Below, in pieces: positions 8,916-61,744 of a stretch of DNA of 64,000 bases. The stretch lies in NCBI RefSeq assembly GCF_044704955.1, contig NC_091991.1, positions 70,990,001 to 71,054,000 on the forward strand, in the 5' to 3' direction. Within the stretch, counting starts at the first letter, position 1. Every line of letters starts with the position of its first letter. The stretch is from Pristiophorus japonicus. Its lineage: Eukaryota. Below the pieces are notes generated by a model that had not been told where the DNA came from, searched no databases, and saw nothing but the letters and a program-made list of their open reading frames with translations. Made by a program: the position numbers and the translations under genes.

Positions 8916-9817
8916 GACGCCGTAAAGAATGTATCACTTTGGTGAATGAGGATAGGATAATTGGATTCCCTAGCTGAAATTTTTGTTGGTGGAGAATTCA
9001 GCCGACTGACAAAGCGACTTTGAGAGGTTCTTTGTTTTGCAGAAAAGCTAAAAATTCAAGTAAATTACAAGCACACTTGGCTGAACTGAAGAGTCCAGAT
9101 GGCCATGCCTGTGGGAACAATAGGGCACTTGGGTGAGTTCCATCGCGACCGAGACTAGTTCGGAGCATATGTGGAGCGGCTAGAAATGTTTTTCACCACA
9201 AATAGTATAGTCGATGATGAAAACCATAACCGGGTGGTTTTAGAAAGAAAACGGGCTATTTTCTTGATTGAAGCAGGCCCCAAGGTGTATGAAACCCTGA
9301 AACATGTGCTTGTTTCCATCAAGCCAAAGGACACATCACTGACAGAGATTCAGCACTACAGTCCTGAGCCCCTGGAAATTGCTGAAAGTTATCGTTTTGG
9401 AATACATCAATCAATTGACGTAGGTATCAGTGTGTTAATTGTAAGTTTTAAAAAGCTATCCATTCATTGCAATTTCGGAAACTTTCAGCGCCGAGCATTG
9501 CGTGACTACTTGAACTAAATGAGGAGTCCACGTCATGTTTGACTATAAATATTCATCAAGGCTACCATTTGGAGTGTCTTCCACCCCCACCATATTCCAA
9601 GGAGTGATGAACCAGATTTTGCAAGGCCTTGAATGGGTAGTATGTTATTTAGATGACATACTCATTTCAGCACCAAACAGGCAAATCCATAATTATGTAT
9701 TGAATGAAGTGTTCAAACGGCTAGAGAAGCACAGAGTACGAGTAACTGCTCCCAAGTGTGATTTATTTCAAAACTCAGTGGAGCACTTAGGGCACAGAGT
9801 AGACAATGATGGTTTAC

Positions 9818-10410
9818 ATCAGCAGGCTGGGCCATTAGAGGGAGCAGCGTGCGGCAGCCCGGCCCAGAAATCAACGTGGTACCGGCCTGCAAGACCATTA
9901 GCAAGACGGGCCATCAGAAGGAGCAGCGTGCGGCGGCATGCCACTTCAAGGAGCAGCGCATGCTGCTGCAGGTGGGTGACGTCTGATTGCAGTATGGGCA
10001 GGTACAGCAGGAGTGGCGAGGCAGGGACAAAGGAATGGCAAGAGTTCGTAGAGGAAAGTGACCGGGGCCCAGGAAAGGCAAAATTTCAGGGCCCAGAAGA
10101 GGTGAGGGCCCAGGGATAGCACGGGTCAGCCCACACTGCAATTGTGTGCACACGAGGTTCGTGCAGCAGAGCTAGTCTCCAGTCGTATTGGTTAATCTTT
10201 GCCACTGGACCAAGACCTAGCTCTGTCAAGCCCGTGTGGTAGCTGGGGTGCAACGGCCACCACACGTTAAAAAAATCCACGCACAGGTGTCTTCCACCCT
10301 TCAGGATGTAGTTCGGGATCCGGAATATCATTGAAACACCTGTGAACTCATCCGTCGGCGTGGAAACAAGTCATCCTCGTTTCAAGGGACTGCCTATAGT
10401 GATATGGTGA
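9818..10410 (+). mobile_element. SINE-like repeat (same family as 3135-3455) inserted in the Gypsy RT
   Basis: The Gypsy frame breaks after ..DGLH and resumes near 10415; (GAT)n-like tail. Confidence 0.7.
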
Positions 10411-11574
10411 TGATGACATCCAACCAAAAGAAAGCTGGATGCAATCAGAAATGCACCCACTCCCAAGAATGTCACTGAACTCATTTTTGGGTCTTTTGAA
10501 CTATTATGGGAAGTTCCTACCAAATTTGGCTACAGTATTACATCCACTGAATGAGCTGTTGAAAAAACAAGTCAATTGGAAGTGGTCAGAAGAATGCGAC
10601 ACGGCATTCAAGGAGCGTAGAAGCCAGTTGGTAGAGAGTACCATGTTAGTTCACTATGACATATCTAAGGAGATCAAGCTGATGCCTCTCCGTATGGAGT
10701 TCGGGCCATGATCTCTCATGTACTACATAGTGGGGAGGAGAGACCAATTGCTTTTGCTTTACGCATTCTCAGTGCCAGTGAGCGTAATTATGCGCAGATC
10801 AAAAGGTAATCTTTGCCATTGATTTTTGGGGTCAAGACGTTCCACAAATACTTGTATGGTCGTATATTTACCATCGTTACTGACTTAAGCCCCTGACAGC
10901 AATTCTCCGACCAAAGTCCCCGGGTCTAACCTTAGCTAAGCCTGAAAGCAGAGATGGTTGATTTTGTCAGCATATGCATATGACATTGAGTACAGATGAT
11001 CAGCTGATCACAGTAATGCTGATCAGGTTGCCATCCCCATCACAGGTTACACCTAATAGGGAAGAAGTGTTCTATTTTACATTCATTGATGAACTGCCAG
11101 TCACAGTTGAAGAGATTGGTAGAGCAACCAAACGTGACCCAGTTATGTCAAAGGTGTATGATTACATAGCAAATGGCTGGGCAAACCATGTATCAGAGGA
11201 AGGTATTCATCTATACTTCATTCGTAGGAATGAATTATCAGTGAATAAAAATTGTATCATATGGGGTGCAAGAGTAGTTATTCCAAGTAAGTTCAGGTCC
11301 AAATTGTTAGATCTTCATGTTCAAGCATATTCCCAGGTGCTGGTCAAGAGTTTTGCACACAGTTACTTATGGTGGCCAGATCTAGCTAAAGATATAGAGT
11401 ACATCTTTAGTCAGTGTACAACATCAATCGGTAAGCAAAAAACCATCACCAGTCTCATTACAGCCATGGAAATGGCCTCCCAGGGTGTGGCAAAGGTTAT
11501 ATGTAGATTTTGCTGAGCTAGAAGGACAGCAATTGTTCACTGTGATTGATAGTCATTCAAAGTGGGTAGGGGCA

Positions 11575-26885: not shown

Positions 26886-27350
26886 TGTCAGTTGTGGCTC
26901 AGTGGGTAGCATTCTCACCTGAGTCAGAAGGTTGTACATTCAAGTCCCACTCCAGGGACTTGAGCACAAAAAAAAAATCTAGGCCAACAGTGCAGTGCTG
27001 AGGAAGCATTGCACTGTTGGAGTGCCGTCTTTCAGATGAGACATTAAACCAAGGCCCAGTCTGCTCTCTCAAGTGGACATAAAATATCCCATGGCACTAT
27101 TTCAAAGAAGAGCAGGGGAGTTCGCACCGATGTCCTGGCCAATATCTATCGCTCAATCAACATAGCAAAAAAACAGATTATCTGGTCATTATCACATTGC
27201 TGTTTGTGAGAGTTTGCTTGTGCGCCGTTTTAGCTGCAGCATTTCCTACATTACAACAGTCACTACATTCCAAAAGTACTTTACTGGCTGTAAAGCGCTT
27301 TGAGACATCCAGTGGTTGTGAAAGCCGCTATATAAATCAGTTTTTCTTAT
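26886..27350 (+). mobile_element. tRNA-derived SINE (Deu-domain/SacSINE-like)
   Basis: A-box-like TGGCTCAGTGG, B-box-like TTCAAGTCC, central tgccgtctttcagatgagac..taaacc domain; a reverse partial copy lies at 31375-31672. Confidence 0.75.
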
Positions 27351-29470
27351 GTATCTCTCTCTTTTCCCTATACATCTTACTCTCTATCCACAGTATCGCG
27401 CTCTCTCTTTTCCCTATATATCTCATTCTCTCTATCCCCAGTATCTCTCTCTCCTTTCCCTATGTATTTCTCTCTATCCCCAGTATCTAATTCTCTTTAT
27501 CCCCAGTATCTCTATCCTTTCCCTATGTATCTCTCCCTATCCCTAGTATCTCTATCCTTTCCCTATGTTCTCTCCCTATCCCTAGTATCTCTATCCTTTC
27601 CCTATGTTCTCTCCCTATCCCTAGTATCTCTATCCTTTCCCTATGTTCTCTCCATCCCCAGTACCCCGCACTCTCTCCATCCCCAGTACCCCGCACTCTC
27701 TCCATCCCCAGTACCCCGCACTCTCTCCATCCCCAGTACCCCGCACTCTCTCCATCCCCAGTACCCCGCACTCTCTCCATCCCCAGTACCCCGCACTCTC
27801 TCCATCCCCAGTACCCCGCACTCTCTCCATCCCCAGTACCCCGCACTCCCTCCATCCCCAGTACCCCGCACTCCCTCCATCCCTCACATTCTCTCCATGG
27901 TATCTCGCACACTCTCCATCCCCAGTATCTCGCACTTTCTCTCCATCCCCAGTATCTCTATCCTTTCCCTATGTATCACTCACTCTCTTCATCCCCAGTA
28001 TCTCTATCCTTTATCCCCAGTATCTCTATCCTTTCCCTATGTATCACTCACTCTACCCCCAGTATCTCACTCTCTCCACCCCCAGTATCTCTATCCTTTC
28101 CCTATGTATCGCTCAATTTCTCCACCCCCAGTATCTCTCACTCTCTCCACCCCCAGTATCTCTATCCTTTCCCTATGTATCTCACACTCTCTCTATCCCC
28201 AGTATCTCTATCCTTTCCCTATGTATCGCTCACTCTCTCTATCCCCAGTATCTCTATCCTTTCCCTATGTATCTCACAATCTCTCCACCCCCAGTATCTC
28301 TATCCTTTCCCTATGTATCTCACACTCTCTCTATCCCCAGTATCTCTATCCTTTCCCTATGTATCGCTCACTCTCTCCACCCCCAGTATCTCTATCCTTT
28401 CCCTATGTATCTCACACTCTCTCTATCCCCAGTATCTCTATCCTTTCCCTATGTATCGCTCACTCTCTCTATCCCCAGTATCTCTATCCTTTCCCTATGT
28501 ATCTCACAATCTCTATCCTTTCCCTATGTATCTCACACTCTCTCTATCCCCAGTATCTCTATCCTTTCCCTATGTATCTCACTCTCTCTACCCCCAGTAT
28601 CTCTATCCTTTCCCTATGTATCGCTCACTCTCTCTACCCCCACTATCTCTATCCATTCCCTATGTATCTCACACTCTCTCTACCCCAAGTATCGCTATCC
28701 TTTCCCTATGTATCTCACACTCTCTCTATCCCCAGTATCTCTATCCTTTCCCTATGTATCTCACACTCTCTCTATCCCCAGTATCTCTATCCTTTCCCTA
28801 TGTATCGCTCACTCTCTCTACCCCCACTATCGCTATCCTTTCCCTATGTATCTCACACTCTCTATCCTTTCCCTATGTATCTCACACTCTCTCTATCCCC
28901 AGTATCTCTATCCTTTCCCTATGTATCTCACAATCTCTATCCTTTTCCTATGTATCTCACAATCTCTCTATCCCCAGTATCTCTATCCTTTCCCTATGTA
29001 TCTCACAATCTCTATCCTTTCCCTATGTATCTCACACTCTCTCTATCCCCAGTATCTCTATCCTTTCCCTATGTATCTCACACTCTCTCTATCCTTTCCC
29101 TATGTATCTCACACTCTCTCTATCCCCAGTATCTCTATCCTTTCCCTATGTATCTCACAATCTCTATCCTTTCCCTATGTATCTCACACTCTCTCTATCC
29201 CCAGTATCTCTATCCTTTCCCTATGTATCTCACACTCTCTCTATCCTTTCCCTATGTATCTCACACTCTCTCTATCCCCAGTATCTCTATCCTTTCCCTA
29301 TGTATCTCACAATCTCTATCCTTTCCCTATGTATCTCACACTCTCTCTATCCCCAGTATCTCTATCCTTTCCCTATGTATCTCACAATCTCTATCCTTTC
29401 CCTATGTATCTCACACTCTCTCTATCCCCAGTATCTCTATCCTTTCCCTATGTATCTCTCACTCTCTTTT
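27350..29470. repeat. Pyrimidine-rich minisatellite in NDUFA5 intron 1
   Basis: Roughly 30-47-bp units built from ccccagtatctctatcctttccctatgtatctcacactctctctat, plus an embedded 25-bp array ctctctccatccccagtaccccgca (about 27650-27880). Confidence 0.97.
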
Positions 29471-29484
29471 TGACCTCTACTCAC

Positions 29485-29505
29485 TTTTTTCAGGAGTCCA
29501 GCCAT
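29485..29505 (-). CDS. NDUFA5: NDUFA5 exon 1 coding part (MAGLLKK)
   Basis: gcggcaATGGCT Kozak context and GTGAGT donor; the five exons splice to 116 aa, the same length as human. Confidence 0.96.
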
Positions 29506-29935
29506 TGCCGCCGCAGTGCATTGTGGGATGGCCTCCAGGCCGTGTAAAGGAGCGCCGAGCTGTCGCGGTGCCTAGACCTGATGAGCGGAGCTGCGAGCCT
29601 GAGCGCGCTGACGGGCGGACGGGCGGACGGAGGAGCAGCAGGCGCGGAGTGTGTGAGCCCGAGCGGGGCCTGGCCACAGCGTGAGGGGAGGGGGATGGGG
29701 CACAGGTGGGGAGCGCGGCCGGACTGGATTACAGACTGGCGGCGGCTGAGACCCGGCCTGTAATCACTGGGGGCGGGCGGCGCTTGGTATCAGTCCCCGT
29801 GTGTTTAATATGGGATCGTGTGTGAGTTATGGTCTGAGGGGGCGTGACCTGGGTGGGCGGGGCCGGGGTATGGTCAGCCTGTGGGCGTTACCTAGGTGGG
29901 CGGCCCTTGTGAGGGGCGGGGCCGATGGACCAGCT
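29506..29935. promoter_or_regulatory. CpG island, NDUFA5 promoter, possibly bidirectional
   Basis: High GC/CpG content and several GGGCGG (Sp1) boxes immediately upstream of the NDUFA5 ATG. Confidence 0.8.
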
Positions 29936-38051: not shown

Positions 38052-38453
38052 GTCTTAACCTTAGATACCCTTAAATTGGTAATAACAATGTTACAGTTCA
38101 CTTATTGATATAAAAAATAAAAGAAAAGCTACTCACCAATCACCAGCCAATCACTTACCCCATTGGTAGTATATCCTTCCTTAAGTAAGGTGACCAAAAC
38201 TGCACGCAGTACTCCAGGTGCGGCCTCACCAATACCCTGTACAGTTGCAGCAGGACCTCCCTGCTTTTGTACTCCATCCCTCTCGCAATGAAGGCCAACA
38301 TTCCATTTGCCTTCCTGATTACCTGCTGCACCTGCAAGCTAACTTTTTGGGATTCATGCTCAAGGACCCCCAGGTCCCTCTGCACCGCAGCATGTTGTAA
38401 TTTCTCCCCATTCAAATAATATTCCCTTTTACTGTTTTTTTTTCCAAGGTGGA

Positions 38454-39119
38454 TGTTAGCGTTAGTGTTTTCTCTGAAGAATCACTCAACACTCAGGGTC
38501 GGTTCCAATGCTGAAGCAGCTTTATTACGCTCAGCGGGAAGGAAAAACTCAGGACCGTATCCAGGTTTCTCTTCACAGAACAAAGAGTTACATGTACCTT
38601 TATATGTTTTACAACAGTTACAAAACAGCTTACTGCAGTTACACAGCTCATCACGGCTGGACACAAGCCAATCATAACGATTATAGATTACATATGGGTT
38701 TTTTAATCCAATAGAATTCTCCTAGTAACCAGGGAACCATTGTCAATTTGGGTTGATCGATGACTTTATATGTTCTCTCCCTAGTTCTTTCATCTGGGAG
38801 AAATAATTGGTTTGTAGCCTTGTTTACAGCAAATGGTTTCCCTCTTATCTTTCTTCCTGGGGAATTAATTGGTTTATGGCCTTGTTCACAGGAGATGGCT
38901 TCCTTCTTATCTCTGCCTTCCCAGGCATTCCTACAGTGGGCCTCACAGGGTTATTGCTCGGTCAGTGAACGTTCAACAGTTCACAGTTTGACTACCTGAT
39001 TTCCCATAATGCCTGGGCAGCCATTTTATGTGTGTGTCCATTTAAGCTTATGTGAGTTCTAAATATCCAGCAGGTGCCTAATGCCTAAGTCTATATATAT
39101 CTTTCGACTCTCTACAACA
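38454..39119 (-). repeat. 3' LTR (666 bp)
   Basis: Direct repeat of 42560-43225 with only one difference noticed; minus-strand TATAAA 38599-38604 and AATAAA 38521-38526. Confidence 0.95.
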
Positions 39120-39256
39120 ATTCCCCCTTTCGGTAAAGGGACTAGCCCTAGTCCCCTTTTAACCGAAATACTGCCTTTATCTGATATTTGTGCACGGCCC
39201 GGTATTCCTTGCCTCAACGTGCTGGCCAGTCACGCGGTTTCAGGAGTTCCGGTTGC

Positions 39257-40657
39257 TCAAATCAAATTAACAAAGGCTAGCTCCTCCCGTCCCCTTATCA
39301 AACAGACTTGTTTAATATCCAGGGAACGGTGATTGGTCCGTTTCTGCCGTTTGTGGCGCCTGCATACCTGGCAGGCCATCACGCCCCATGTTATTGCTAA
39401 GATTAATTGTATTCCGACCAGTGTGTGTGAAATAATTCGAATCCATGGGTGGATGTTCACATTTATTCCCCAGTCCCAGACCTTTCTCCACCAACTCTGA
39501 CTTTGTAAGTCTACCTCGGTATCTTCTTTGATTTTAGTTTGTAGCTGGTGATAGAGTTTTACAGATTGACCCACTCTGAGCCTCAACTCCCGTAATACTT
39601 CGGTTAGATGTGGGATAGGGACCTGCTCTGGCTCGTCATAATCCTGCAAATGATCATGGAGCTGATCAGTTACTTCAATAACTTCGGACTTCCGGCGCCT
39701 AACCTGGGTGATATGCGCTTGCCCGATCGCGACAGGTCGTAGTGGTGTAAAGCAAAAGTTTGGCTGCGGTATAGGGCACTGCAGGCCATTATACTGGTAT
39801 GAACGCTCAGTAGTAGAGACGCAGTATCTTCCCCTCCCTCCGTAGCCTGCCCTCGCGAAGTGCATGTGTGCGGGCACTATTTCTAGTACACACCCATTGG
39901 TTCGGTTAAACCCGCACTCGTCTAGTTCGCCTCGGCCCACCGGGTGAGGGCATACTGTGATTTCCCCCCTTTGCTTGCAATCTGCTAGGGAAATCCCGGT
40001 AAGTATGTTGTTTCGACGAACGGCAGAGGTGGTGGTTAGGTAGTAGCGTATGGAGACATTTTCCCGTATTACTCCGATATTCTCTAGTTGGTATAAGGGG
40101 AACGGCCCTGAGTCCGGCGTTGCTATGGGGATCAACAGGACTATCCCTATCCCGGTAGTCCTACCCATCTGGCAATCTGGAATTGCGGGGTATACTCGGG
40201 TCAGTCCCTTCAGAGTACAATTATCCAGTGTCCCCCTTTGGTTCGCCAACTGAGCTAAATGTGAACTGTCTATCCAATCGGGTACCTCCCCGCGTTGGAT
40301 CTGGTTGAGGTTGTGGCGGATCTGTCCCACCATCCACAGACCATAAGCATGACAGAGTTGCCCCTGTCTTTGCTTTATTGTATCTTCTTGTTCTCTATCA
40401 ATGAGGTGATTGATGGTTTTAGCGTGAGCTTCCAGGACTGAGATGCCATCCAACTGGATTTCGGCCCCCTCCTTTCCTAGGTTGGCCTGGTCTTCCTGGT
40501 TTTGCTCCACCCTCTCCAATAACCCCTTCATCACCCCTTTAAGCTGTTCTACCCTCTCATTTAGCCCTTGTATGTCTATCGAGTTCACTACGGAGGTTCC
40601 TGTATTGAAAACGGTAGCAACATCATTGCCAAAGAATTTTTTTTTTTTTAAATTGTT
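39257..40657 (-). CDS. Envelope/class I fusion glycoprotein-like open frame, N-terminally truncated (no signal peptide; first ATG at 40531)
   Basis: Fusion-peptide-like NDVATVFNTGTSVVNSIDI, heptad region, Cys-rich domain with N-glycosylation sequons (NCT, NVS, NRT), second heptad, Trp-rich membrane-proximal segment, TM helix, basic tail. Confidence 0.78.
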   Translation of the reverse strand, partial: NNLKKKKFFGNDVATVFNTGTSVVNSIDIQGLNERVEQLKGVMKGLLERVEQNQEDQANLGKEGAEIQLDGISVLEAHAKTINHLIDREQEDTIKQRQGQLCHAYGLWMVGQIRHNLNQIQRGEVPDWIDSSHLAQLANQRGTLDNCTLKGLTRVYPAIPDCQMGRTTGIGIVLLIPIATPDSGPFPLYQLENIGVIRENVSIRYYLTTTSAVRRNNILTGISLADCKQRGEITVCPHPVGRGELDECGFNRTNGCVLEIVPAHMHFARAGYGGRGRYCVSTTERSYQYNGLQCPIPQPNFCFTPLRPVAIGQAHITQVRRRKSEVIEVTDQLHDHLQDYDEPEQVPIPHLTEVLRELRLRVGQSVKLYHQLQTKIKEDTEVDLQSQSWWRKVWDWGINVNIHPWIRIISHTLVGIQLILAITWGVMACQVCRRHKRQKRTNHRSLDIKQVCLIRGREELAFVNLI

Positions 40658-41830: not shown

Positions 41831-42559
41831 ACCTTTCAGGGAATTCGTAGTTTTATCTAAATAATTCCTCACATAACTAATTCCTGAGGATTCCACCCTG
41901 CTTTAATCATTTTTTCAATTAGCTTCTTTTGTTTTTCCGCCAGGTGGCGGGTAAGCGACCCTTCTGGTCCCCACTCGAGTTTACTTGTTTTCATGGCCAT
42001 TCCTGGGTAGGACTGGTATCGTTAGGAATCTACTCTCAGCGGTCCGCTTTCTTTCTAGCGCGACTTGTAGTAAACTGTCTCTTGGCTACTGTCAGGTCAC
42101 AAGTTCTGCTGTTACACAAACTTATACAATTCTTAAAAACGCGTTTAAGCAATTCCCGCAGTGCTCTACGTATCCTTAACGACTACCTACCACCGCTCAG
42201 CCCGTTGGTCCGACCCTGTTCACAGGTTTGGATTCCGTTAGCCGCTGTACACCGCTTGGTTCTATCCCGGGGTATTTCAAATTACACTACTGGGTCCGGA
42301 AGATGTCTCTCGGTATCACGATCCCACGGTCTAAGTGTGTTCCCTACGCCTACTTGGTTCCTGGCCGTCACGTGGGACAAAAGTCCTCTTAATTCAGGCT
42401 CAGGCTAGGCGTTTGAGATATTAGACCGTCTCCTCATGTCGATCAACCAGCTTCCACCTTCCGCACCCTTTATACTTAAAAATTGTTTTTTATACTCACC
42501 CGGGTTTTTTTTTTCCAAGGGCGTCCAGCGACTCCGGGAAATCCCGTCGACTACGCCAT

Positions 42560-43225
42560 TGTTAGCGTTAGTGTTTTCTCTGAAGAATCACTCAACACTC
42601 AGGGTCGGTTCCAATGCTGAAGCAGCTTTATTACGCTCAGCGGGAAGGAAAAACTCAGGACCGTATCCAGGTTTCTCTTCACAGAACAAAGAGTTACATG
42701 TACCTTTATATGTTTTACAACAGTTACAAAACAGCTTACTGCAGTTACACAGCTCATCACGGCTGGACACAAGCCAATCATAACGATTATAGATTACATA
42801 TGGGTTTTTTAATCCAATAGAATTCTCCTAGTAACCAGGGAACCATTGTCAATTTGGGTTGATCGATGACTTTATATGTTCTCTCCCTAGTTCTTTCATC
42901 TGGGAGAAATAATTGGTTTGTAGCCTTGTTCACAGCAAATGGTTTCCCTCTTATCTTTCTTCCTGGGGAATTAATTGGTTTATGGCCTTGTTCACAGGAG
43001 ATGGCTTCCTTCTTATCTCTGCCTTCCCAGGCATTCCTACAGTGGGCCTCACAGGGTTATTGCTCGGTCAGTGAACGTTCAACAGTTCACAGTTTGACTA
43101 CCTGATTTCCCATAATGCCTGGGCAGCCATTTTATGTGTGTGTCCATTTAAGCTTATGTGAGTTCTAAATATCCAGCAGGTGCCTAATGCCTAAGTCTAT
43201 ATATATCTTTCGACTCTCTACAACA
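42560..43225 (-). repeat. 5' LTR (666 bp)
   Basis: Followed on the minus strand by PBS TGGCGTAGTCGACGGGATT and a donor CGG|GTGAGT at 42494-42499. Confidence 0.95.
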
Positions 43226-45694
43226 GTGGATGACCTCACATTTTCCAACATTGTATTCCATCTGCCAAACCTTAGCCCATTCGCTTAACCCAACTAAATC
43301 TCTTTGCAGCCTCTCTGTGTCCTCTACACAACCCGCTTTCCCACTAATCTTTGTGTCATCTGCAAATTTTGTTACACTACACTCTGTCCCCACTTCCAGG
43401 TCATCTATGTATATTGTAAACAGTTGTGGTCCCAGCACCGATCCCTGTGGCACACCACTAACCACCGATTTCCAACCCGAAAAGGACCCATTTATCCCGA
43501 CTCTCTGCTTTCTGTTAGCCAGCCAATTATCGATCCATGCTAATACATATCCTCTGACTCCGCGTACCTTTATCTTCTGCAGTAACCTTTTGTGTGGCAC
43601 CTTATCGAAAGCCTTTTGGAAATCTAAATACACCACATCCATCGGTACACCTCTATCCACCATGCTCATTATATCCTCAAAGAATTCCAGTAAATTAGTT
43701 AAACATGATTTCCCCTTCATGAATCCATGTTGCGTCTGCTTGATTGCACTATTCCTATCTAGCTGTCCCGCTATTTCTTCCTTAATGATAGCTTCAAGCA
43801 TTTTCCCCACTACAGATGTTAAACTAACTGGCCTATAGTTACCTGCCTTTTTGTCTGCCCCCTTTTTTAAACAGAGGCGTTACATTAGCTGCTTTCCAAT
43901 CCGCTGATACCTCCCCAGAGTCCAGAGAATTTTGGTAGATTATAACGAATGCATCTGCTATAACTTCCGCCATCTCTTTTAATACCCTGGGATGCATTTC
44001 ATCAGGACCAGGGGACTTGTCTACCTTGAGTCCCATTAGCCTGTCCAGCACTACCTCCCTAATGATAGTGATTGTCTCAAGGTCCTCCCTGCCCACATTC
44101 CCGTGACCAGCAATTTTTGGCATGGTTTTTGTGTCTTCCACTGTGAAGACCGAAGCAAAATAATTGTTTAAGGTCTCAGCCATTTCCACATTTCCCATTA
44201 TTAAATCCCCCTTCTCATCTTCTAAGGGACCAACATTTACTTTAGTCACTCTCTTCCGTTTTATATATCGGTAAAAGCTTTTACTATCTGTTTTTATGTT
44301 TTGCGCAAGTTTACTTTCGTAATCTATCTTTCCTTTCTTTATTGCTTTCTTAGTCATTCTTTGCTGTCGTTTAAAATTTTCCCAATCTTCTAGTTTCCCA
44401 CTAACCTTGGCCACCTTATACGCTTTTAATTTGATACTCCTTTATTTCCTTGGTTATCCACGGCTAGTTATCCCTTCTCTTACCGCCCTTCTTTTTCACT
44501 GGAATATATTTTTGTTGAGCACTATACAAGAGTTCCTTAAAAGTCCTCCACTGTTCCTCAATTGTGCCACCGTTTAGTCTGTGTTCCCAGTCTACTTTAG
44601 CTAACTCTGCCCTCATCCCACTGTAGTCCCCTTTGTTTAAGCATAGTACGCTCGTTTGAGACACTACTTCCTCACCCTCAATCTGTATTACAAATTCAAC
44701 CATACTGTGATCACTCATTCCGAGAGGATCTTTTACTAGAAGATTGTTTATTATTCCTGTCACATTACACAGGACCAGATCTAAGATAGCTTGCTCCATT
44801 GTAGGTTCTGTAACATACTGTTCTAAGAAACAATCCCGTATGCATTCTATGAATTCCTCCTCCAGGCTACCCCATGCGATTTGATTTGACCAATCGATAT
44901 GTAGGTTAAAATCCCCCATGATTACTGCCGTTCCTTTTTCACATGCCTCCATTATTCCTTTGATTATTGTCCGCCCCACCATGAAGTTATTATTTGTGGG
45001 CCTATAAACTACGCCCACCAGTGACTTTTTCCCCTTACTATCTCTAATCTCCACCCACAATGATTCAACATTTTGTTCATTAGAGCCAATATCATCTCTC
45101 ACAACTGCCCTGATATCATCCTTTATTAACAGAGCTACCCCACCTCCTTTCTCTTCTTGTCTATCCTTCCGAATTGTCAGATACCCCTGTATGTTTAATT
45201 CCCAGTCTTGGCCACCTGCAACCACGTTTCTGTAATGGCCACCAAATCATACCCATTTGTAATGATTTGTGCCGTCAACTCATTTATTTTATTTCGAATG
45301 CTGCGTGCGTTTAGGTAGAGTGTTATAATACTAGTTTTTGAACCATGATTTTTAGTTTTGACCCCTCCTGCAGCCCCTTTATATTCATACATATTGTCCC
45401 TTCCTATCACTTTGTGCTACTCTGCTCTGTTGCCTCCTGCCTTTTGCATTCTTTCTTGGGGTCCTGTTCATCTGCGCTCTCACCCACTCTAACTAGCTCA
45501 GAGCCCTCTACTGGGTTCCGAATACTCCTCGCATTGAGGCATCGAGCTTTCAAGCTTGCCTTTTTATTATACTTTGACCCTTTAGAATTTTGCTGTACAG
45601 TGGCCTTTTTTGTTTTTTGCCTTGGGTTTCTCTGCCCTCCACTTTTACTCATCTCCTTTCTGTCTTTTGCTTCTGTCTCCATTTTGTTTCCCTC

Positions 45695-53070: not shown

Positions 53071-54837
53071 AAAAAAAAGCCCCACAGGTTCCAGGTGCAA
53101 GTGGAGAGCCGACATTCCCTGCTCCCCAAACATTTCAATTGAGGCTAAGTGGGTTTACAAAGTGCCTGGGGATCCAGTGGACCCTGGACTTTGTGAGCAC
53201 TTTATAAAGCAGGTTTGACACCACATTGGATTTCTACTCCATATGACTTTCTCTTGACTCTTGATTTACAATGCCAGTTTAATGTCGGTATGGACCCAAA
53301 ATCACTTCTCACCGGTGCTAAGCTTGCAATGTAAATGCACTCCTAACGTTGGAAATACATTTCTGCCATAAGGCCAGCCTTTTAAATTTTAAAAACCCAA
53401 TTGTATTTAACAGCTCCTGTCAGTACAGATGATGATTGCTATCAGTCACTCCGCATCTTAAGACATGTGATAACATTCACACAAGGGCATTAACAAATAC
53501 AACATCATTATCATGGGTTTGCAGTTGAGTACAATGCAATTCTATGTCCCATACATCTATATATTCTAAAATAATACCATTAGCAATCGCACTGCCTGAA
53601 ATTTGTTCCATCTGCTGTGCTATTTAAGGTCCCATGGGGTTTAACTGCAGCTGGTCGTCTTTGAATAGAGACCCTGTTCTATAGATGCAGAGTTGAGTCA
53701 TTGCACCTGTCCATATTAGAATGTGAGATTGAATAACATGGTTGAGGGATCGTGCATCTATTAATATATTGTGAATACAGTCTGGAATATGACAACTGTG
53801 AGACACTTACAAACTGCAGAACATATGATAGTGTAAAGGACAGGGTTAATTCTCCAGCCGCCTTCTGAAGCCAGTCACTATTATAACAAAGTGTACTTAA
53901 AAGGGGAGTTTTCAGCCTGGTTTGGATTCTGGAAAAGCCTGTTCTGAAGACTCAAATCCAGAATTTTTGGCCACGGGAAAATTTGCACTGCAAATTTGCA
54001 AAAACTGCACATAACGCAGCTTAAACTTTTGCATTGGGTTTTGTTTTAAAACAAATTGAATCAAGGTGGTCAGGCGGTATCAGTGATGCAAAACACAGTG
54101 TACACCATTTCTTGCTTCTCTGTGCATAACCAGTTTTGTGCAAACTTTGCAACCATGTGCCTTTAAATGGTTGTTAAAGTGCTGCTGTGTGCTTCTTCGT
54201 AACTCTTTTAAGATGACGTGCTCCTGATACAGTGGAGGATAATGGAAAGCTGTTAGTGAACTACAAGGCATTAAACTCATTGAGGGATTGTTTTGGATCG
54301 ATAATAATAGACCCAGGTTCGGGATCTGGATGAATGTTAAATAAGAGACAAGACAAATGAAGTAAAGATAAAACATCGTTTAATGAGAGAAAAGAAAATT
54401 AATACAGTTTACGAAGAAAAGAGAAGTATGATAAGATGCAACAAAGCTCACCGCCTTCGGCCCATCTGTAACTCCGCAACGATGGCTGGTCAGGAGCCTT
54501 GGGGGGTCCCGGCACCGCTCGCGAATCACGGTCTAAGGTGAAGTTCAAAGAGCTACTGGACAGTTCCATTCCTTTATACTATTGAACAAACATGGGTGCA
54601 TGTGGCTCATGGCCAACTCCTGATCTGTAAGACCCCAGCTGGTCTTCCACAAAGCATGAGACCTCGAGGCGCCGACCGTCCCATAAACAAGATGGTGTGC
54701 GCATCAAGGCCTCTCTCTCTCTCTCTCTGCATCAACAACATTCCACGAGGCATGAAGCAGAAACAAACTGTAAATGTCGGAATATCATAATTAACCCGAT
54801 GTGATTAACCCTATACAATACAATCCACCCTTGATAT

Positions 54838-55216
54838 TTAGGCATTCTGAGTAATATAATCGAGTTGAAGGCGTAATGCATCAGTTACACGTTGAGTATG
54901 CGCAAGCAACGCCCGCCATCTACACCAAAGAATACATATGAGCAGTAATATCCGTAATAATGCGACGAGTAGAACAGCGATAGGATGTATTAGTAGCTTC
55001 AAAGCGGCGGATGTTTTGGGGACCATCCGTAAAAGATGTCCCACCAATGGTGTACCATAAGGTCAGTGACCGTTGTCGCAACTTGTCTTGCGTACGATCA
55101 GAGTTAGCAAACTGCCACCCTATACGGCCATCTCATGCTGTGTTTGAGGATGGAAGTAGCACAGTCACAGATAACGAGACACAGAGACTTGCCTACACGA
55201 GTTGGTAAGTCGCCAT
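54838..55216 (-). pseudogene. Internally deleted env remnant
   Basis: Acceptor tctcccacag (about 55231), ATG plus hydrophobic leader, then HHWWDIFYGWSP / LLIHPIAVLLV TM segment across frameshifts. Confidence 0.7.
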
Positions 55217-55258
55217 TTTGGGCAGAATTCCTGTGGGAGAAAGCATAAGTATATTAAT

Positions 55259-58200
55259 TCAGCCCTGTTTAGTCAATTTACCCTTGTCAACACAGAGAGG
55301 AATATCTTGACCAGTCAGGAGCACCCAATAAGTGTTTCCTTCTCCTTTTGCTAAGATTTCCCCTGCTTGTAAGGGTTTCTGGGGGTACTGCACCCACACT
55401 TTTCCTCCTTCACAAACTGTGTCCTGAGTCTGATTTTCTTTTTCAATAGTAGGGACACTAACTTTGCCTAACATGTGGCTTATGGGAGCTCCCTCCCACA
55501 ATGGTCTGTGATTCAGATTGCGCATTGCTTGTGGTAAGACCTTTAACCACCCTTGTAATGTGTTACTGGGAGTTAATATTTTAATCTGTTGCTTAAGTAG
55601 TCCATTCATGCATTCTATTAACCCTGCAGCTTGCGGATAGTAAGGTATGTGAAACATCCAATAGATCTCGTTGTCTACCGCCCACTGTTGCACTGTTTGA
55701 CTTGTGAAGTGCGACCCATTATTGGACTGTACTTCTGCTGGCCCACCGTAGTATGTGATTAAATTCTCCATCCTTTAATCGTACTTTGTTGATTCGCTTT
55801 AGTCACTGGATAAGCTATCAAAAGTCCAGAATAGGTATCAACAGCAGTGAGCAAATATTGGAACCGTAAATATTGCAATGGTAAAGGTCCTACATAATCA
55901 ACTTTCCATATTTGTGCTGGTTGAGTCCCTCTCTTAATATGGGCACCGAGTTGTCGTTGTAGGGGAAAATGCTTCACCTTTTGACAAATTTCATCGGTGT
56001 TTATGATCTGTTTAACACCGTCCGTAGTCAAATGTAACCCCCTATTTCGTGCCCATTGTATCGTACCCTGAATGACCAAATGTCCAGATTTGTGGTGGGC
56101 TCACTTGCCTATGTCATATTCTTCCTCTTCTGCCTCTTTGACAGCCCATACCCGGGCTATATTATCAACAGTGTTATTATGTTCAGAGGTCTTTGAAGTG
56201 TTTTTCATGTGAGCGTCCACATGCTATACAGTTATTTTCATCTTCTGGGCTTTGGACCATATTTGTTCCCATAGGTGCTTTCCCCACAAGTCTTTCCCAG
56301 TTATTTGCCAGTTATGTTCATGCCAGTTTCGCATCCAGCTCGCCATGCCATTGGCTACTGCCCATGAGTCAGTATATATGTGTACTCTTCTAACGCAAGA
56401 ACTACAGCTGCTAGTTCTGCTAGCTGGCTGGAGCCTCCCACGCCCTCATCATGCACAATTGTCCGGGTTTTTGGATTGAAGGCAGCGGCTCGCCATCGCC
56501 GAAGGCCATTTCGCCAGACCACTGACCACTGAGCCATCTGTGAACCAGGCATGGCTACGTTCTTCAGGTGCTAACTGTTCAAAAGACATGCCCCAGGAGA
56601 TCGGTGACACTTTGGTTAAACTGACAGACGACTGCATAAGTTCACTCTCAGCTGTTTGTGGGTATTCAGCCACATGCTCATGTAGTCGGGTGATTCCTTC
56701 TTTTCCTTTACTTGCTCTGTCTGTCTGCGATATACCATTTCCAGCGCACTGTGGAGCTTTGCTGCGCTCGCCCGACCTTGTGTGTCTCATTTACTGAGAG
56801 AGCCCAGGATAATATGGGTAGGTCTGGTCTTAAACTGACTTTGTCGTCCCATGTCTATCCTTCTGTTTCTGTTAGGGCCCAATAATATGCTAATAATTGT
56901 TTCTCAAATGGAGTGTAACGAGTAGCAGTATCTGTCAATTTTCTAGACCAGATACCTAACTGTATACGAGTGCCATGTTGAACCTGCCACAAACTCCATA
57001 CTGCAGTATCATTGGTAACAGATACCTGTAGCTCAAAAGGCTGCCCAGGCACTCGCGGGGCTAGGGGTAAAGCTTGAGCTACGGCTTCTTTGGCTGCATC
57101 AAAAGCCACCTGCTGTTCCCTTCCCCACTCGAAGTGGCCCTTTTTTCGTGTTACGGCATACAGCGGTTTTAATAACATCATGAGGTGAGGTATGTGTCTC
57201 CTCCAGTAACCCAGTAGTCCCACAAACTGTTGTGTCTCAGTTTTATTCGTGTGGGTGGCCATTTCTTGAATTTTATTCTTCACAGGCTCGGGTATGATGC
57301 GCTCACCCCGAGACCATTGGATCCCCAGAAACTGGACAGTCTGGCTAGGGCTCTGCACCTTCTTCGGATTTATCTCCCAGCCCCTGTCTCGCATGTGTTG
57401 GACTAAAGTAGCTGGGGTTTCTGACACCACTGCCTCGGTGGGACCCCTTATTAGTACATCATCGATGTAGTGTGCCAGTGAGACATTAGGAGCCAACGTG
57501 CACATGTCCAGGTCCCAGGCCACCAATCCGTGGTATAGGGTAGGGCTATGTAGGTAACCCTGAGCTAGGTGTTTAAACGTGTATTGCCTCCCTTCCCAAG
57601 TGAATGCAAACTGGTCCTGGAATCCTTCCGCTATTGGAATGGAGAAAAAGGCATTGGCCAGGTGGATTACTGTATACCACTCCGCACCTTCAGACAGCCG
57701 CTCTGTTATAGTTACTACATCTGGGACAACGGTTGCCAGGGGAGGGGCAAATTTGTTCAGTTGTCAGTTGTCCACAGTCATCCTCCAACTTTTGTCGGGT
57801 TTCTGCACAGGCCAAACAGGGCTATTGTAGGGGGACACCGCATGTCTAATGATACCCGCCTCCAAGAGCCCTTGTATGGTTTCCCCTATTTCTTTCTGTC
57901 CCCCAGGTATTTGGTACTGTTTCATAGTCACTATACGGGATGGCCGTGGTATTACCACTGGTTCCCACTTTGCTTCCCCTGCAATCACAGTGATCGCCCG
58001 TATCCCGAATGAGAATTGCCCGACCGAAGTGTTGTGTGTGGTTCCCTTTAAAAAGTCCATCCCAATAATATGTTCCTTTACTGCCGATATTAAGACCGTT
58101 ACCCAGCGCGGAGGCCCATTTCCCAATGCCATTCTGATAGTTGTTCGGAGAGTGGGTGTTTCTGCCCCTCCGAACCCATTAATCATCATATGGGTCCCTG

Positions 58201-58300
58201 TGTGTTTCCTAGAATTTCCATGGACAATAGTAACTTCTGCCCCTGTGTCTAGCATCTCTTTGTATGTTCCCCCCCCCGCGAATGTATCGTAATCAGAACG
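55259..58300 (-). pseudogene. ERV pro-pol: protease (LDTGA), RT (YNSPVWPV, YIDD), RNase H (WFTDGS), integrase (WKVDYVGPLP, VDTYSG, HIPYYPQAAGLIE)
   Basis: Fragmented ORFs 57764-58255, 56855-57526, 56355-56790, 55759-56079 and 55259-55771. Confidence 0.92.
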
Positions 58301-59972
58301 TGTGGCCTCAGGCTCCCGGGAGCTTGGGTTGATGTGGTTCTAACGGGGAGTACTCCTGGATCCCGGCCACACACCTTGTCGAGGGGATTACTAGCCTTCC
58401 ACAGCTCTTCTACGTTGGGGTATAGGCTAGCGGGAGGTGGTTTCTCCGCATCCGCAGACTTATCACTATCCGACTTAGTCTCCCTTACCTCCTTCCTTTC
58501 ACCCTTCCCTGTTCCCGGGATGCAGTGTTGCTTCCACATAGAATACATCGCTCCTGTTGGGATTCCATCAATTTTTTCCTTGGGGACCCCTGCCTTCAGT
58601 ACAGCCGCGAACATGTCCGTCCGCGTAATTCTTTTTTTTGTCTTTCCTGACCCTGTACCTTTCCCAGAGGTCGAACCTTGTCGCTGGTCCTGATCCCCCT
58701 CTACATTAGCCGTTCTCGACTCTCGCGCACTATCTTCTACATCCTCTAACTGTCCTAACAATAGACAAGCGTGCCCCACCCGCTGCCCTTGGGCTGGCCC
58801 CAATAATGCGAGTAGCGCACCCCTCATCATAGGAGGGCCACTCTTCATCAGCCTGCTCTGCATTCCTGCCGTAAAGAACTCCTGATCTGGCCCCCCATAT
58901 GGTTGGTGATATAATCCTCCCTGAGTTGCCATGTTGCACAACTGTATCGCACCCTCCGCCATAGTATTCCAAGGTTTTACCTCCCCTTCCCAATCAACGG
59001 CAGAGGGATATTTTTGCCGGACCCCTATAGTAACCATGTCCCATAGCGAACCTGTGCCCTGGACATTCCATAGCACTGCTGTGATATGGTGGTCCGTAGT
59101 CATAGTCCCCATTTTTGTTAACTCTTCGGGGTTAAGTATTACGCCTGATGCTCCCTGGTCCCAAATCCGGGTTAGCCATTCTGACAATGATTCCCTGGGT
59201 TTTTGGCGAAATTGAGACCCTATTTCTTGTAACTCACTAGTGGTGAAGTCACGCACCCCTCTAGTGGTTACCGGCTGTTCCCCATCTTGCTGTTTTGTTT
59301 TATTTGTCATAAGGGATCTAGTTTCCGTGCTCGGAGTGTATGGGGGAGTGTCTTTAGTTTCCTCCCGTTTCCCCCCCCCCCTTTCCATCTGTCCACTCAT
59401 ATTCTGAGTCAGAGGAGTACCAGATGTCTCCGTCCCAACGAGCCAGATCCCAAGTGGGTCCAGTTACCAATGCACATACCTTTGACCGATCTATCTAATT
59501 TCCGTCGTCTAGCTTTCTTTTTATTTTGTACTGTCGCCAGACGGCATATTAAAGTTTCTGATTGTTCATTGACTTTGTCCGCCCGTTCTTGTGCAGTGCA
59601 GACCGCTTCAGTCAGAGTCGAGTTTTGACTTTCCAAAACCTTAACAGATGTTTTTAACTGTAGGTTTTCTGCCTCACTTTCCTTAAGTTGTTTACACATC
59701 GCCCTTAATGCTGTCAACAAAATCCATCCCATTTGTGTGGGACTACTTTTCTCCTGTGGGAAGCCCGCTTCCTCCAGGAGAGACAGTACCGCGTGGGGTA
59801 CGGTTCTATCTTTGCTCTGTTCCAATAACTGCGTATCCCAATGTTGCGGGGGTCCAAACCGGGCTCGCACATTGGCAAGAGAGCCAATACCCTCGTCCCT
59901 CGTGCTCCACCCTGGTATTCTATACTTCTCTCCCGCAGGAGGAGACTGTTTCTTGTCTTTTCTCTGAAACAT
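58249..59972 (-). pseudogene. ERV-L/Fv1-like gag, frameshifted
   Basis: RQKPRESLSEWLTRIWDQG resembles the ERV-L/Fv1 gag core; ATG at 59972 just after the PBS; no CCHC knuckle seen. Confidence 0.82.
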
Positions 59973-61744
59973 TTTACCAGATCCTGTTCGTGACGCCAAA
60001 ATGTTTTGGATTGATAATAATAGACCCAGGTTCGTGATCTGGATGAATGTTAAATAAGAGATAAGACAAATGAAGTAAAGATAAAACACCGTTTAATGAG
60101 AGAAAAGAAACATAATACAGTTTACGAAGAAAAGAGAAGTATGATAAGATGCAACAAAGCTCACAGCCTTCGGCCCGTCGGGAACTCCGCAACGACGGCT
60201 GGTCAGGAGCCTTGGGGGTCCCGGCACCGCTCGCGAATCACGGTCCAAGGTGGAGTTCAAAGAGCTACTGGACAGTTTCATTCCTTTATACTATTGAACA
60301 AACATGGGTGCATGTGGCTTATAGCCAACTCCTAATCTGTATGGCCCCAGCTGTTCTTCCACAGAGCATGAGACCTCGAGGCGCCATCCGTCCCATAAAC
60401 AAGATGGTGTGAGCATCAATGTCTCTCTCTCTCTCTCTCCCTCTCTCTCTCTGCATCAACAACATTCCACGAGACATGAAGCAGAAACACACTGTAAATG
60501 TCGGAATATCATAATCAACCCTATGTGATTAACCCTATACAATACAGGGATGAGGTGACATCATGCACTGTAAATGTGAAGCTCAAACATGATTTGAAGT
60601 TATAAATGGGGTTGCATCAGAAATGGCACATTTGGCCATCCATTAATTCGTTATTTGGCATCCATTGTCTTACCCGATTCCTTGAAAGCTTTTCTTTCCA
60701 ATGCACTGGTCTTTTCCTTGGTGCAGGAAACGTTCAAGTGCTGCGTTACAGAGGCTATAGCGTAACTTTAAACCTGGACCCGAAGCATTGCTCAGTGTCT
60801 GAACAGGAAGTGTCCAACAGCATTATCATCCTTCCTCCCCAGAAGGTTACAGCAGAATGAATTGTTAGTCATAGATAGTATTTTTGAGACTGTACAGAAA
60901 AAATTATGGACCATAGGTTATAGATTTATTATTCATGTAATTACTGATTGGAACAGAAGGTTTTGCAGAGTGCACAGGGACTTAGGCAACCCATCTTTCA
61001 GGATGAATCTCCTATCTAGTGGAGTGGAACCTTGAGCGAAAAAAAAAAAATCCTTTTGTCCAGCTGTTTTAATCCATAATTAATATACATTCTTCAGCCC
61101 ATATTCTCTCATTTGTTTATAATAGTTTCTAAAACCTTGTATTTACACTGGAATCACCATGACAAGTGGTAGAGATTACTAACAGTGAATTAGTAAATTG
61201 CCCAATAGAGGGCAGGCCATGGCTGTATTTTCTGAGTTTCAGTCCCGGGCCTTTGTTTACGGATATCACAGCCCTGTATAAATTAAAGCACTCATAGGAA
61301 TCAAGCTATCTCTTTGTCTCGTAAAGTACATCATTTGTAAGCCCTCGATAAGCGAGTAAGATTGTTTCTCAGTATAACATTTGAGTTTTAAGATTGGCCA
61401 TGTCTTTGAACAATTAGATGGTTTTGTAAGCCAATCCCAGAGAGACACACTTTGCCACAAAGCTGACATATGAAAAACAACCCAATTTATGGTATTTCAG
61501 CTTCTTCCCAATCAATAACTATCAATGGAACGATTCTGGAGAATGTAGACTACTTTGCATTACTTTGTCATTAAAGTACAAAATGCAAGTGTTGCACTGG
61601 CCAGCATAGAGAATATTGTAGAATATCATACTGGAATTCGGGGCCTGGAATATTTGGCTGTATTTGGACTTGTACTGAAAGCTTCTGAAATATATTAGAT
61701 TATTTCATTTCACATCTTAAAATGCTTGTGAAAGAGGGCGTTAA

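Follow-up and report, generated by a model that had tools for sequence, protein, structure and literature searches.

What kind of envelope does the long open frame of this locus encode, and which retrovirus brought it there? The window (the whole 64-kb stretch of Pristiophorus japonicus DNA that was analysed) contains a stop-to-stop frame of 466 codons on the minus strand (positions 39257-40657), which an earlier note had read as an F-type class I fusogen of the paramyxovirus/pneumovirus kind rather than a gamma-type envelope. Our analysis makes it probable that this frame is the truncated env half of a young provirus lacking gag-pol, and that the intact Env of the family, predicted to be F-type, is carried by a likely SnRV-like virus and not by a lokiretrovirus.

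The env half and its provirus

The order given in the earlier note (fusion peptide, heptad, cysteine-rich domain, heptad, Trp-rich stretch, transmembrane helix, basic tail) was borne out by heptad score, hydropathy and cysteine positions. The fusion-peptide region (residues 11-28 of the frame) is weakly hydrophobic (Kyte-Doolittle 0.63) and a strong heptad starts at residue 29. Nine cysteines lie within residues 147-302, a second heptad starts at residue 348 and a Trp-rich stretch at residue 389, and a single TM helix (residues 408-431, Kyte-Doolittle 1.9) precedes the basic tail. The two heptads, HR1 and HR2, are about 230 residues apart. The absence of CX6CC and of an immunosuppressive motif, also claimed earlier, agrees with a pattern search of the frame, which found no match to CX6CC or to an ISD-like motif. 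By this spacing and this absence, the shark env differs from gamma-type TM subunits.

The first 10 codons of the frame are filler DNA and not env, since they come from across a deletion junction (40626/40627). The deletion also took away the three leading residues of the fusion peptide. The window ORF appears to be only the membrane-anchored half of an env gene. It is enclosed in a provirus of 4,772 bp that has the following features:

38449..38453, no strand: left copy of the 5-bp target-site duplication (TSD), identical to 43226-43230
38454..39119, minus: 3' LTR, 666 bp, TG...CA, one mismatch with the 5' LTR
39120..39135, minus: polypurine tract ahead of the 3' LTR, from its sequence; common to sister copies
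39257..40627, minus: env, membrane-anchored (F1/TM-like) half, open, without start codon context or signal peptide; recognized by motifs and 97.6-98% identity to the same half of intact envs
39365..39493, minus: Trp-rich membrane-proximal stretch and TM helix (hydropathy)
39500..39610, minus: HR2 (heptad score; model helix 432-469)
39701..40294, minus: cysteine-rich beta core resembling F domains I/II; model pLDDT mostly 65-92, aligns to F proteins, cysteines conserved in 77 rows
40295..40579, minus: HR1 and following helices (heptad score; model helices 108-202 of low confidence, with much pLDDT under 50)
40574..40627, minus: fusion-peptide region, first three residues missing; sits after an RVKR furin site in sister copies
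40626..40627, minus: breakpoint of a deletion of 1,483 bp (2-bp microhomology), from comparison with a sister copy; occurs once in the genome
40628..41876, minus: A/T-rich non-coding filler standing in for gag-pol; matches neither gag nor pol nor the full-length provirus
41877..42000, minus: start of gag, about the first 41 codons, with 93% identity to the same part of gag in full-length copies
42541..42558, minus: primer binding site (PBS) of tRNA-Ser(AGA) type with two differences; the tRNA-Ser(AGA) 3' end is present in the genome and the variant in 11 of 20 sister copies
42560..43225, minus: 5' LTR, 666 bp, one mismatch with the 3' LTR
43226..43230, no strand: right copy of the TSD, identical to 38449-38453

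The deletion took the remnant of a small TM ORF, the splice acceptors, the signal peptide, the surface subunit and the furin site, and ends just inside the fusion peptide; its junction sequence was matched once in the assembly. The window copy is, on this comparison, a dead deletion derivative whose deletion is unique to it. The 1,483 bp would have been lost either while this copy was itself being reverse-transcribed or once it had integrated, and no secreted, cleavable Env can be made from it. The earlier note had left a choice between a fresh pseudogene and a frame needing a spliced leader: the first holds, given the unique deletion, and the second is rejected because both splice acceptors of intact copies lie within the deleted part. 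Intact relatives have a signal peptide of their own.

Two PBS variants coexist in defective copies (11 vs 8 of 20) and in full-length ones. A search for a tRNA-Ser gene matching the PBS variant gave 0 matches and none among the first 100 of 1,085 tRNA-Ser-type 3' ends. These 1,085 matches, counted genome-wide, include long tandem arrays with a period of ~1.95 kb on contig C23 (~14-20.5 Mb). Elsewhere in the window, a separate, older ERV-L-like element without env (54289-60546, minus strand) has LTRs that are 92% identical and a broken gag-pol; it was rejected as a helper since its LTR and PBS differ. A compound 25/46/29-bp pyrimidine-rich minisatellite occupies positions 27336-29684, and the remainder consists mostly of CR1-type LINE pieces, with a Gypsy-like fragment near 9523-11516.

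Defective copies, full-length relatives and hosts

All 91 genome matches to the env frame that were scored, out of 24,188 candidates, show 98-100% identity, an internal stop being present in 12 of them, and the dN/dS of the env core against relatives is 0.07-0.15 in six of six pairs. Therefore, the frame is not a chance one. The env core seems to evolve under purifying selection, and such low ratios would be expected if Env served reinfection.

The 20 sister copies that were fetched, selected as near relatives of the window copy and hence biased to its sub-lineage, all measure 6.08-6.42 kb and have no pol frame; their LTRs are 0-2 mismatches apart (one pair also with a 19-base gap). Since 19 of these 20 envs are already interrupted ahead of the furin site, 14 of them by the same frameshift and stop, the burst did not depend on their Env. 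Where full-length copies have gag-pol, the defective family has 1.75 kb of A/T-rich DNA. This filler is 82% identical in an older copy, which indicates that the defective lineage is old and that its env was kept close to that of the helper. The possibility that the A-rich filler is hypermutated gag-pol was rejected, as comparison with gag and pol gave no match at the nucleotide or protein level. Exact pattern counts in the genome were 571 for the gag/filler junction, 163 for the intact gag continuation and one for the deletion junction of the window copy. These counts point to ~571 copies without gag-pol in the genome and to a very abundant retrovirus family.

Loci bearing pol were reached through an integrase end fused to a bamboo-shark env protein. 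Of the ten fetched, most of them picked for long frames, five have unbroken gag, pol and env in a gag-stop-pol layout, with an LTR common with the window copy; the counts may be inflated because two of these loci have the same flanks and could be a single insertion that was assembled two times. LTR pairs are 99.3-100% identical in seven loci, and LTRs are 90-97% identical to those of the window copy. The full-length provirus is ~9.4 kb long, with a gag of 469-472 codons, an in-frame stop and a pol of 1,178-1,181 codons. Pol comprises PR, RT, tether, RNase H and IN with an MLVIN_C-like end, and Gag has two CCHC fingers. A 70-codon frame with a TM-like stretch stands between pol and env in full-length copies (L050:12-224) and is partly kept in defective ones; it possibly encodes an accessory protein.

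The intact Env is 707 aa long from its ATG and consists of a signal peptide, a Cys-rich N-terminal module, a Pro/Thr linker and an RVKR site, followed by the half found in the window copy. Signal peptide, furin site before the fusion peptide, HR1, HR2 and TM are all present in intact relatives, and the window copy is without the first two. The surface subunit has one CXXC, located in the N-terminal module, without a TM partner motif: CXXC in SU is common to gamma-type and shark Envs, whereas the ISD and CX6CC of the gamma-type TM are absent from the latter. As suggested by fold and motifs, the precursor would be furin-cut at RVKR and the variable N-terminal module, on its Pro/Thr-rich linker, would likely bind the receptor. 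The F core would then refold, HR1 projecting the fusion peptide and HR2 packing back, leading to membrane merger.

All 13 near protein matches to env are shark proteins, in keeping with the cartilaginous fish host proposed in the earlier note. An env profile search gave 53 matches, of which 17 were looked up for names; the named relatives come from Mustelus, Chiloscyllium, Heterodontus, Scyliorhinus, Pristiophorus, Rhinoraja, Latimeria (E 1.4e-7), Pelodytes, Mantella and Xenopus tropicalis. Relatives of env thus appear to occur in sharks, a skate, the coelacanth and frogs, those outside sharks being known from env alone. The sawshark genome itself has at least three families, 27-35% identical in env and 55-61% in pol, which is consistent with a long joint descent of the two genes. 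The N-terminal env module is not the same from family to family: one relative shows a weak match to V-set (E 0.045) and another is annotated as Ig-like. Other families of the clade in the same genome (L084:6975-9167, L083:832-2820 and L093) combine different N-terminal modules, one of them Ig-like in appearance, with the same core. Two predicted sawshark proteins (P0152 and P0163) combine parts of env with host sequence of Niban-like or cadherin-like type and would be either gene-model artefacts or exonised env.

The polymerase and the placement of the virus

In the supplementary alignment of PMC7947760, ~96 of 199 RT positions (~48%), counted by eye, are identical between the shark virus and SnRV; identity to MLV is 39% (BLASTP). 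By eye also, the RT motifs RLTIDY and LD.NGFWSI are common to SnRV and absent from WDSV and Xen-1. The Gag zinc finger, GPY/F-like IN motif and in-frame gag-stop-pol that characterize SnRV-like elements (PMC4299795, PMC2717909) are all present. SnRV and SnRV-like ERVs share with the shark virus the RT motifs, a non-myristoylated Gag start, a zinc finger and a small ORF besides gag-pol-env, and have been reported in elephant shark, coelacanth and amphibians, i.e. the host groups of the env matches (PMC12193657, PMC2717909, PMC4977317, PMC4299795). Compared with what these sources give for SnRV, the shark virus differs by its two zinc fingers, an Env tail of ~34 aa (136 in SnRV) and no 3' ORF seen.

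The RT phylogeny of the helper suggested in the earlier note was built on 58 and 29 rows picked from 125 RTs, among which there were no named SnRV, loki, foamy or WDSV rows. The three shark families grouped with a Heterodontus protein and two further, unnamed proteins in a clade (97/94) apart from gamma-like rows. Joining this clade to the gamma rows was rejected (p-AU 0.00026), deep branches being open under a mixture model; a gammaretrovirus-like class I virus was discarded on this basis. ERV3/ERV4 (ERV-L/S-like) elements, as tabulated in PMC4299795, are excluded because of the two CCHC zinc fingers and the GPY-like motif in the MLVIN_C-like end. On these data the helper virus is likely SnRV-like and not a lokiretrovirus, the SnRV placement being that of the by-eye RT comparison.

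An unlikely alternative is that the Env is F-type and the virus, rather than being SnRV-like, belongs to a basal lineage of class I (epsilon-related) or to a distinct one without a name. MLV is indeed the best PDB match over RT, tether and RNase H (404 bits vs 205 for foamy virus), and gag-pol read-through, CCHC fingers and the GPY-like IN motif fit class I too. In addition, the Envs of WEHV1 and WDSV are among the closest BFVD folds listed and the TSD is 4 bp long in six of the 20 sister copies. However, it is 5 bp long in 12 (two being unclear), in the window copy and in the four full-length copies read, whereas ERV1 elements typically have 4 bp (PMC4299795). Moreover, the shark RT clade falls not only outside the gamma clade but also outside an 81/94 branch of gamma and unnamed epsilon-type rows, and the two RT motifs common to SnRV are not those of WDSV or Xen-1.

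It is very unlikely that env is a true lokiretrovirus env, which would make the family the first chondrichthyan lokiretrovirus. Lokiretroviruses are the vertebrate group published with a sequence-detectable F-like Env (PMC7947760), and the shark layout matches theirs motif by motif by eye (GP..GI at the F2 start, RxKR, G..P..W/Y after HR1, a four-Cys cluster). Their Env, as described there, likewise has a signal peptide, RxKR, fusion peptide, coiled coil, Cys cluster and TM and is related to F; the shark env adds a variable N-terminal module of ~130 aa, the Pro/Thr linker and the Trp-rich pre-TM stretch, and its virus has a non-loki polymerase and a cartilaginous fish host. The RT has LPQG where loki RTs show C/T-PFG in the alignment of that paper, and the RT core gives near-equal PDB scores with MLV/PERV (150 bits) and foamy virus (144) against 78 with Ty3. 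The best PDB match of RNase H is XMRV, whereas loki RNase H groups with foamy viruses (PMC7947760). Furthermore, Chiloscyllium punctatum and Scyliorhinus torazame carry the env; both were among the species screened in the same paper, yet are unstarred in its survey table, a star being taken as a lokiretrovirus found.

Of the earlier proposal of a loki-like or class III-like env, the part that stands is a layout homologous to that of loki Env; the helper is not a lokiretrovirus, and its RT is by eye nearest to SnRV among the readable references. The NSID motif said to be shared with class III envs was not confirmed on the one class III env considered, that of XtERV-S, which is described as gamma-type in PMC8278194.

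The predicted fold of Env and its significance

The AlphaFold model that was searched is that of the 479-residue core of an intact sister env, not of the window copy, with an alignment of 77 rows from three or more families (pLDDT 63.9, pTM 0.40, 151 of the 479 residues under 50); a model of the window half made with seven sequences (pLDDT 32.6) was not used. With Foldseek against PDB, the search advised earlier, there were 254 matches at E up to 0.001, and the best 45 were all paramyxovirus/pneumovirus F or foamy Env (RSV F, E 1.7e-11; hPIV3 F, E 3.1e-11; foamy Env, E 3.6e-7), listed matches having 9-15% identity. With VIA over 48,161 chains, the best 12 were again paramyxovirus/pneumovirus F and foamy Env (Z 7.5-10.1, 260-321 residues aligned, rmsd 6-30; foamy Env, Z 8.0 over 264 residues). 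TM-scores of the structural matches are 0.2-0.45, with high rmsd. A Z near 8 alone is indecisive, and it is the aligned length that separates the F matches from helical bundles (60-120 residues). BFVD matches include lispivirus/arlivirus glycoproteins (7e-13), baculovirus F, WEHV1 Env (2.7e-11), WDSV Env (2.1e-7) and feline foamy Env (2.5e-5). No gamma-type Env was found among the fold-search matches listed and no SnRV Env among the 50 BFVD matches listed. The predicted model also has the nested F domains built from both subunits. In the ESM Atlas, the window protein and a Mustelus relative adjoin Fusion_gly, Baculo_F and Gypsy clusters (0.91-0.95), at a recognition value of 1738 that is below the reliable range.

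At the sequence level, Pfam gave no F family (PF00523/PF12259) for the window env, the intact env or the 32 relatives scanned, phmmer and two profiles against PDB gave only coiled coils, and no env relative was found in IMG/VR. A PF00523 scan of the genome gave a single match, below the cut-off (26.4 bits), on a copy of a distant family whose env matches the window-type env at E 1e-13. The least likely reading of all is that the resemblance to F is a coiled-coil artefact and that env is unrelated or a highly diverged gamma-type protein: the lack of a sequence-level match to F, the low global confidence of the model and the CXXC of the surface subunit would agree with it, but the matches span model residues 12-402, beta core included, at lengths beyond those of helical bundles and with E-values down to 1e-11 to 1e-12 in two libraries, and the HR1-HR2 spacing and missing CX6CC/ISD are unlike a gamma-type TM.

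The intact Env of the family is therefore predicted to be an F-type (class Ib) fusion protein that would, by its fold, work like F. Fold and language-model searches support the initial distinction from gamma-type envelopes; the specific tie to paramyxoviruses and pneumoviruses does not hold, since matches across F, foamy, baculovirus and epsilonretrovirus proteins place the env in a wide F superfamily. With the F of paramyxoviruses, pneumoviruses and baculoviruses and the F-type Env of errantiviruses (10.1101/2023.10.26.564294), the shark Env shares predicted fold, furin site and heptads; it differs by the 9-15% identity and by its carrier, a vertebrate retrovirus. Foamy virus Env, of class Ib, is likewise a retroviral Env built on an F scaffold to which a receptor-binding module is added; that module sits within the surface subunit and an N-terminal TM leader is present, whereas the shark module is N-terminal to the core; the same paper puts orthoretrovirus Env in class Ia (PMC11468914). 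The shark virus differs from foamy viruses by its CCHC fingers, gag-pol read-through and tRNA-Ser PBS. The Envs of the exogenous epsilonretroviruses WDSV and WEHV are described as without gamma-type hallmarks (PMC9967133); they are much longer (1,159-1,317 aa) and the RT is different. The predicted structures of WEHV1 Env (Q9WHI8) and WDSV Env (A4GTG3) match the F-type model, hinting that exogenous epsilonretrovirus Envs are F-type, of which no statement was found in the open-access literature searched.

So far, F-like envelopes of retroviruses have been reported for lokiretroviruses, from sequence (PMC7947760), and for foamy viruses, from structure (PMC11468914); a preprint leaves vertebrate ERVs for a publication to follow (10.1101/2023.10.26.564294). 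No report of an F-type Env on an SnRV-like gag-pol was found in the open-access literature searched, subscription papers lying outside this coverage. The available parts of PMC7947760, 10.1101/2023.10.26.564294, PMC11468914, PMC12193657, PMC2717909, PMC4299795, PMC4977317, PMC9967133, 10.1101/2024.03.25.586437, PMC13709493, PMC11089739, PMC8922424, 10.1101/2024.03.17.585361, PMC8672886 and PMC8278194 contain no description of an F-type Env in sharks or on a virus of the SnRV-like kind.

Taken alone, the window copy is an unremarkable dead derivative, and the interest lies in the pairing of Env and polymerase in its family: likely a further branch of retroviruses with an F-type envelope, here joined to an orthoretrovirus-style, likely SnRV-like gag-pol. 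The co-divergence of env and pol over at least three families in one genome, together with the occurrence in sharks, skate, coelacanth and frogs, speaks for an old and widespread envelope and against a one-off capture from a mononegavirus. Such envs escape Pfam, so one may be present in many ERVs of fish and amphibians that are called env-less. We tentatively suggest, as a plausible reading that falls short of probable, that Retroviridae had an F-type (class Ib) fusogen as their ancestral envelope, that it persists in lokiretroviruses, foamy viruses, the SnRV-like lineage of sharks, coelacanth and frogs and, judging by the fold search, the walleye epsilonretroviruses, and that gamma- and beta-type Envs are later replacements. 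If so, the shark family would be a living-fossil example, with swappable N-terminal receptor domains and recent full-length insertions.
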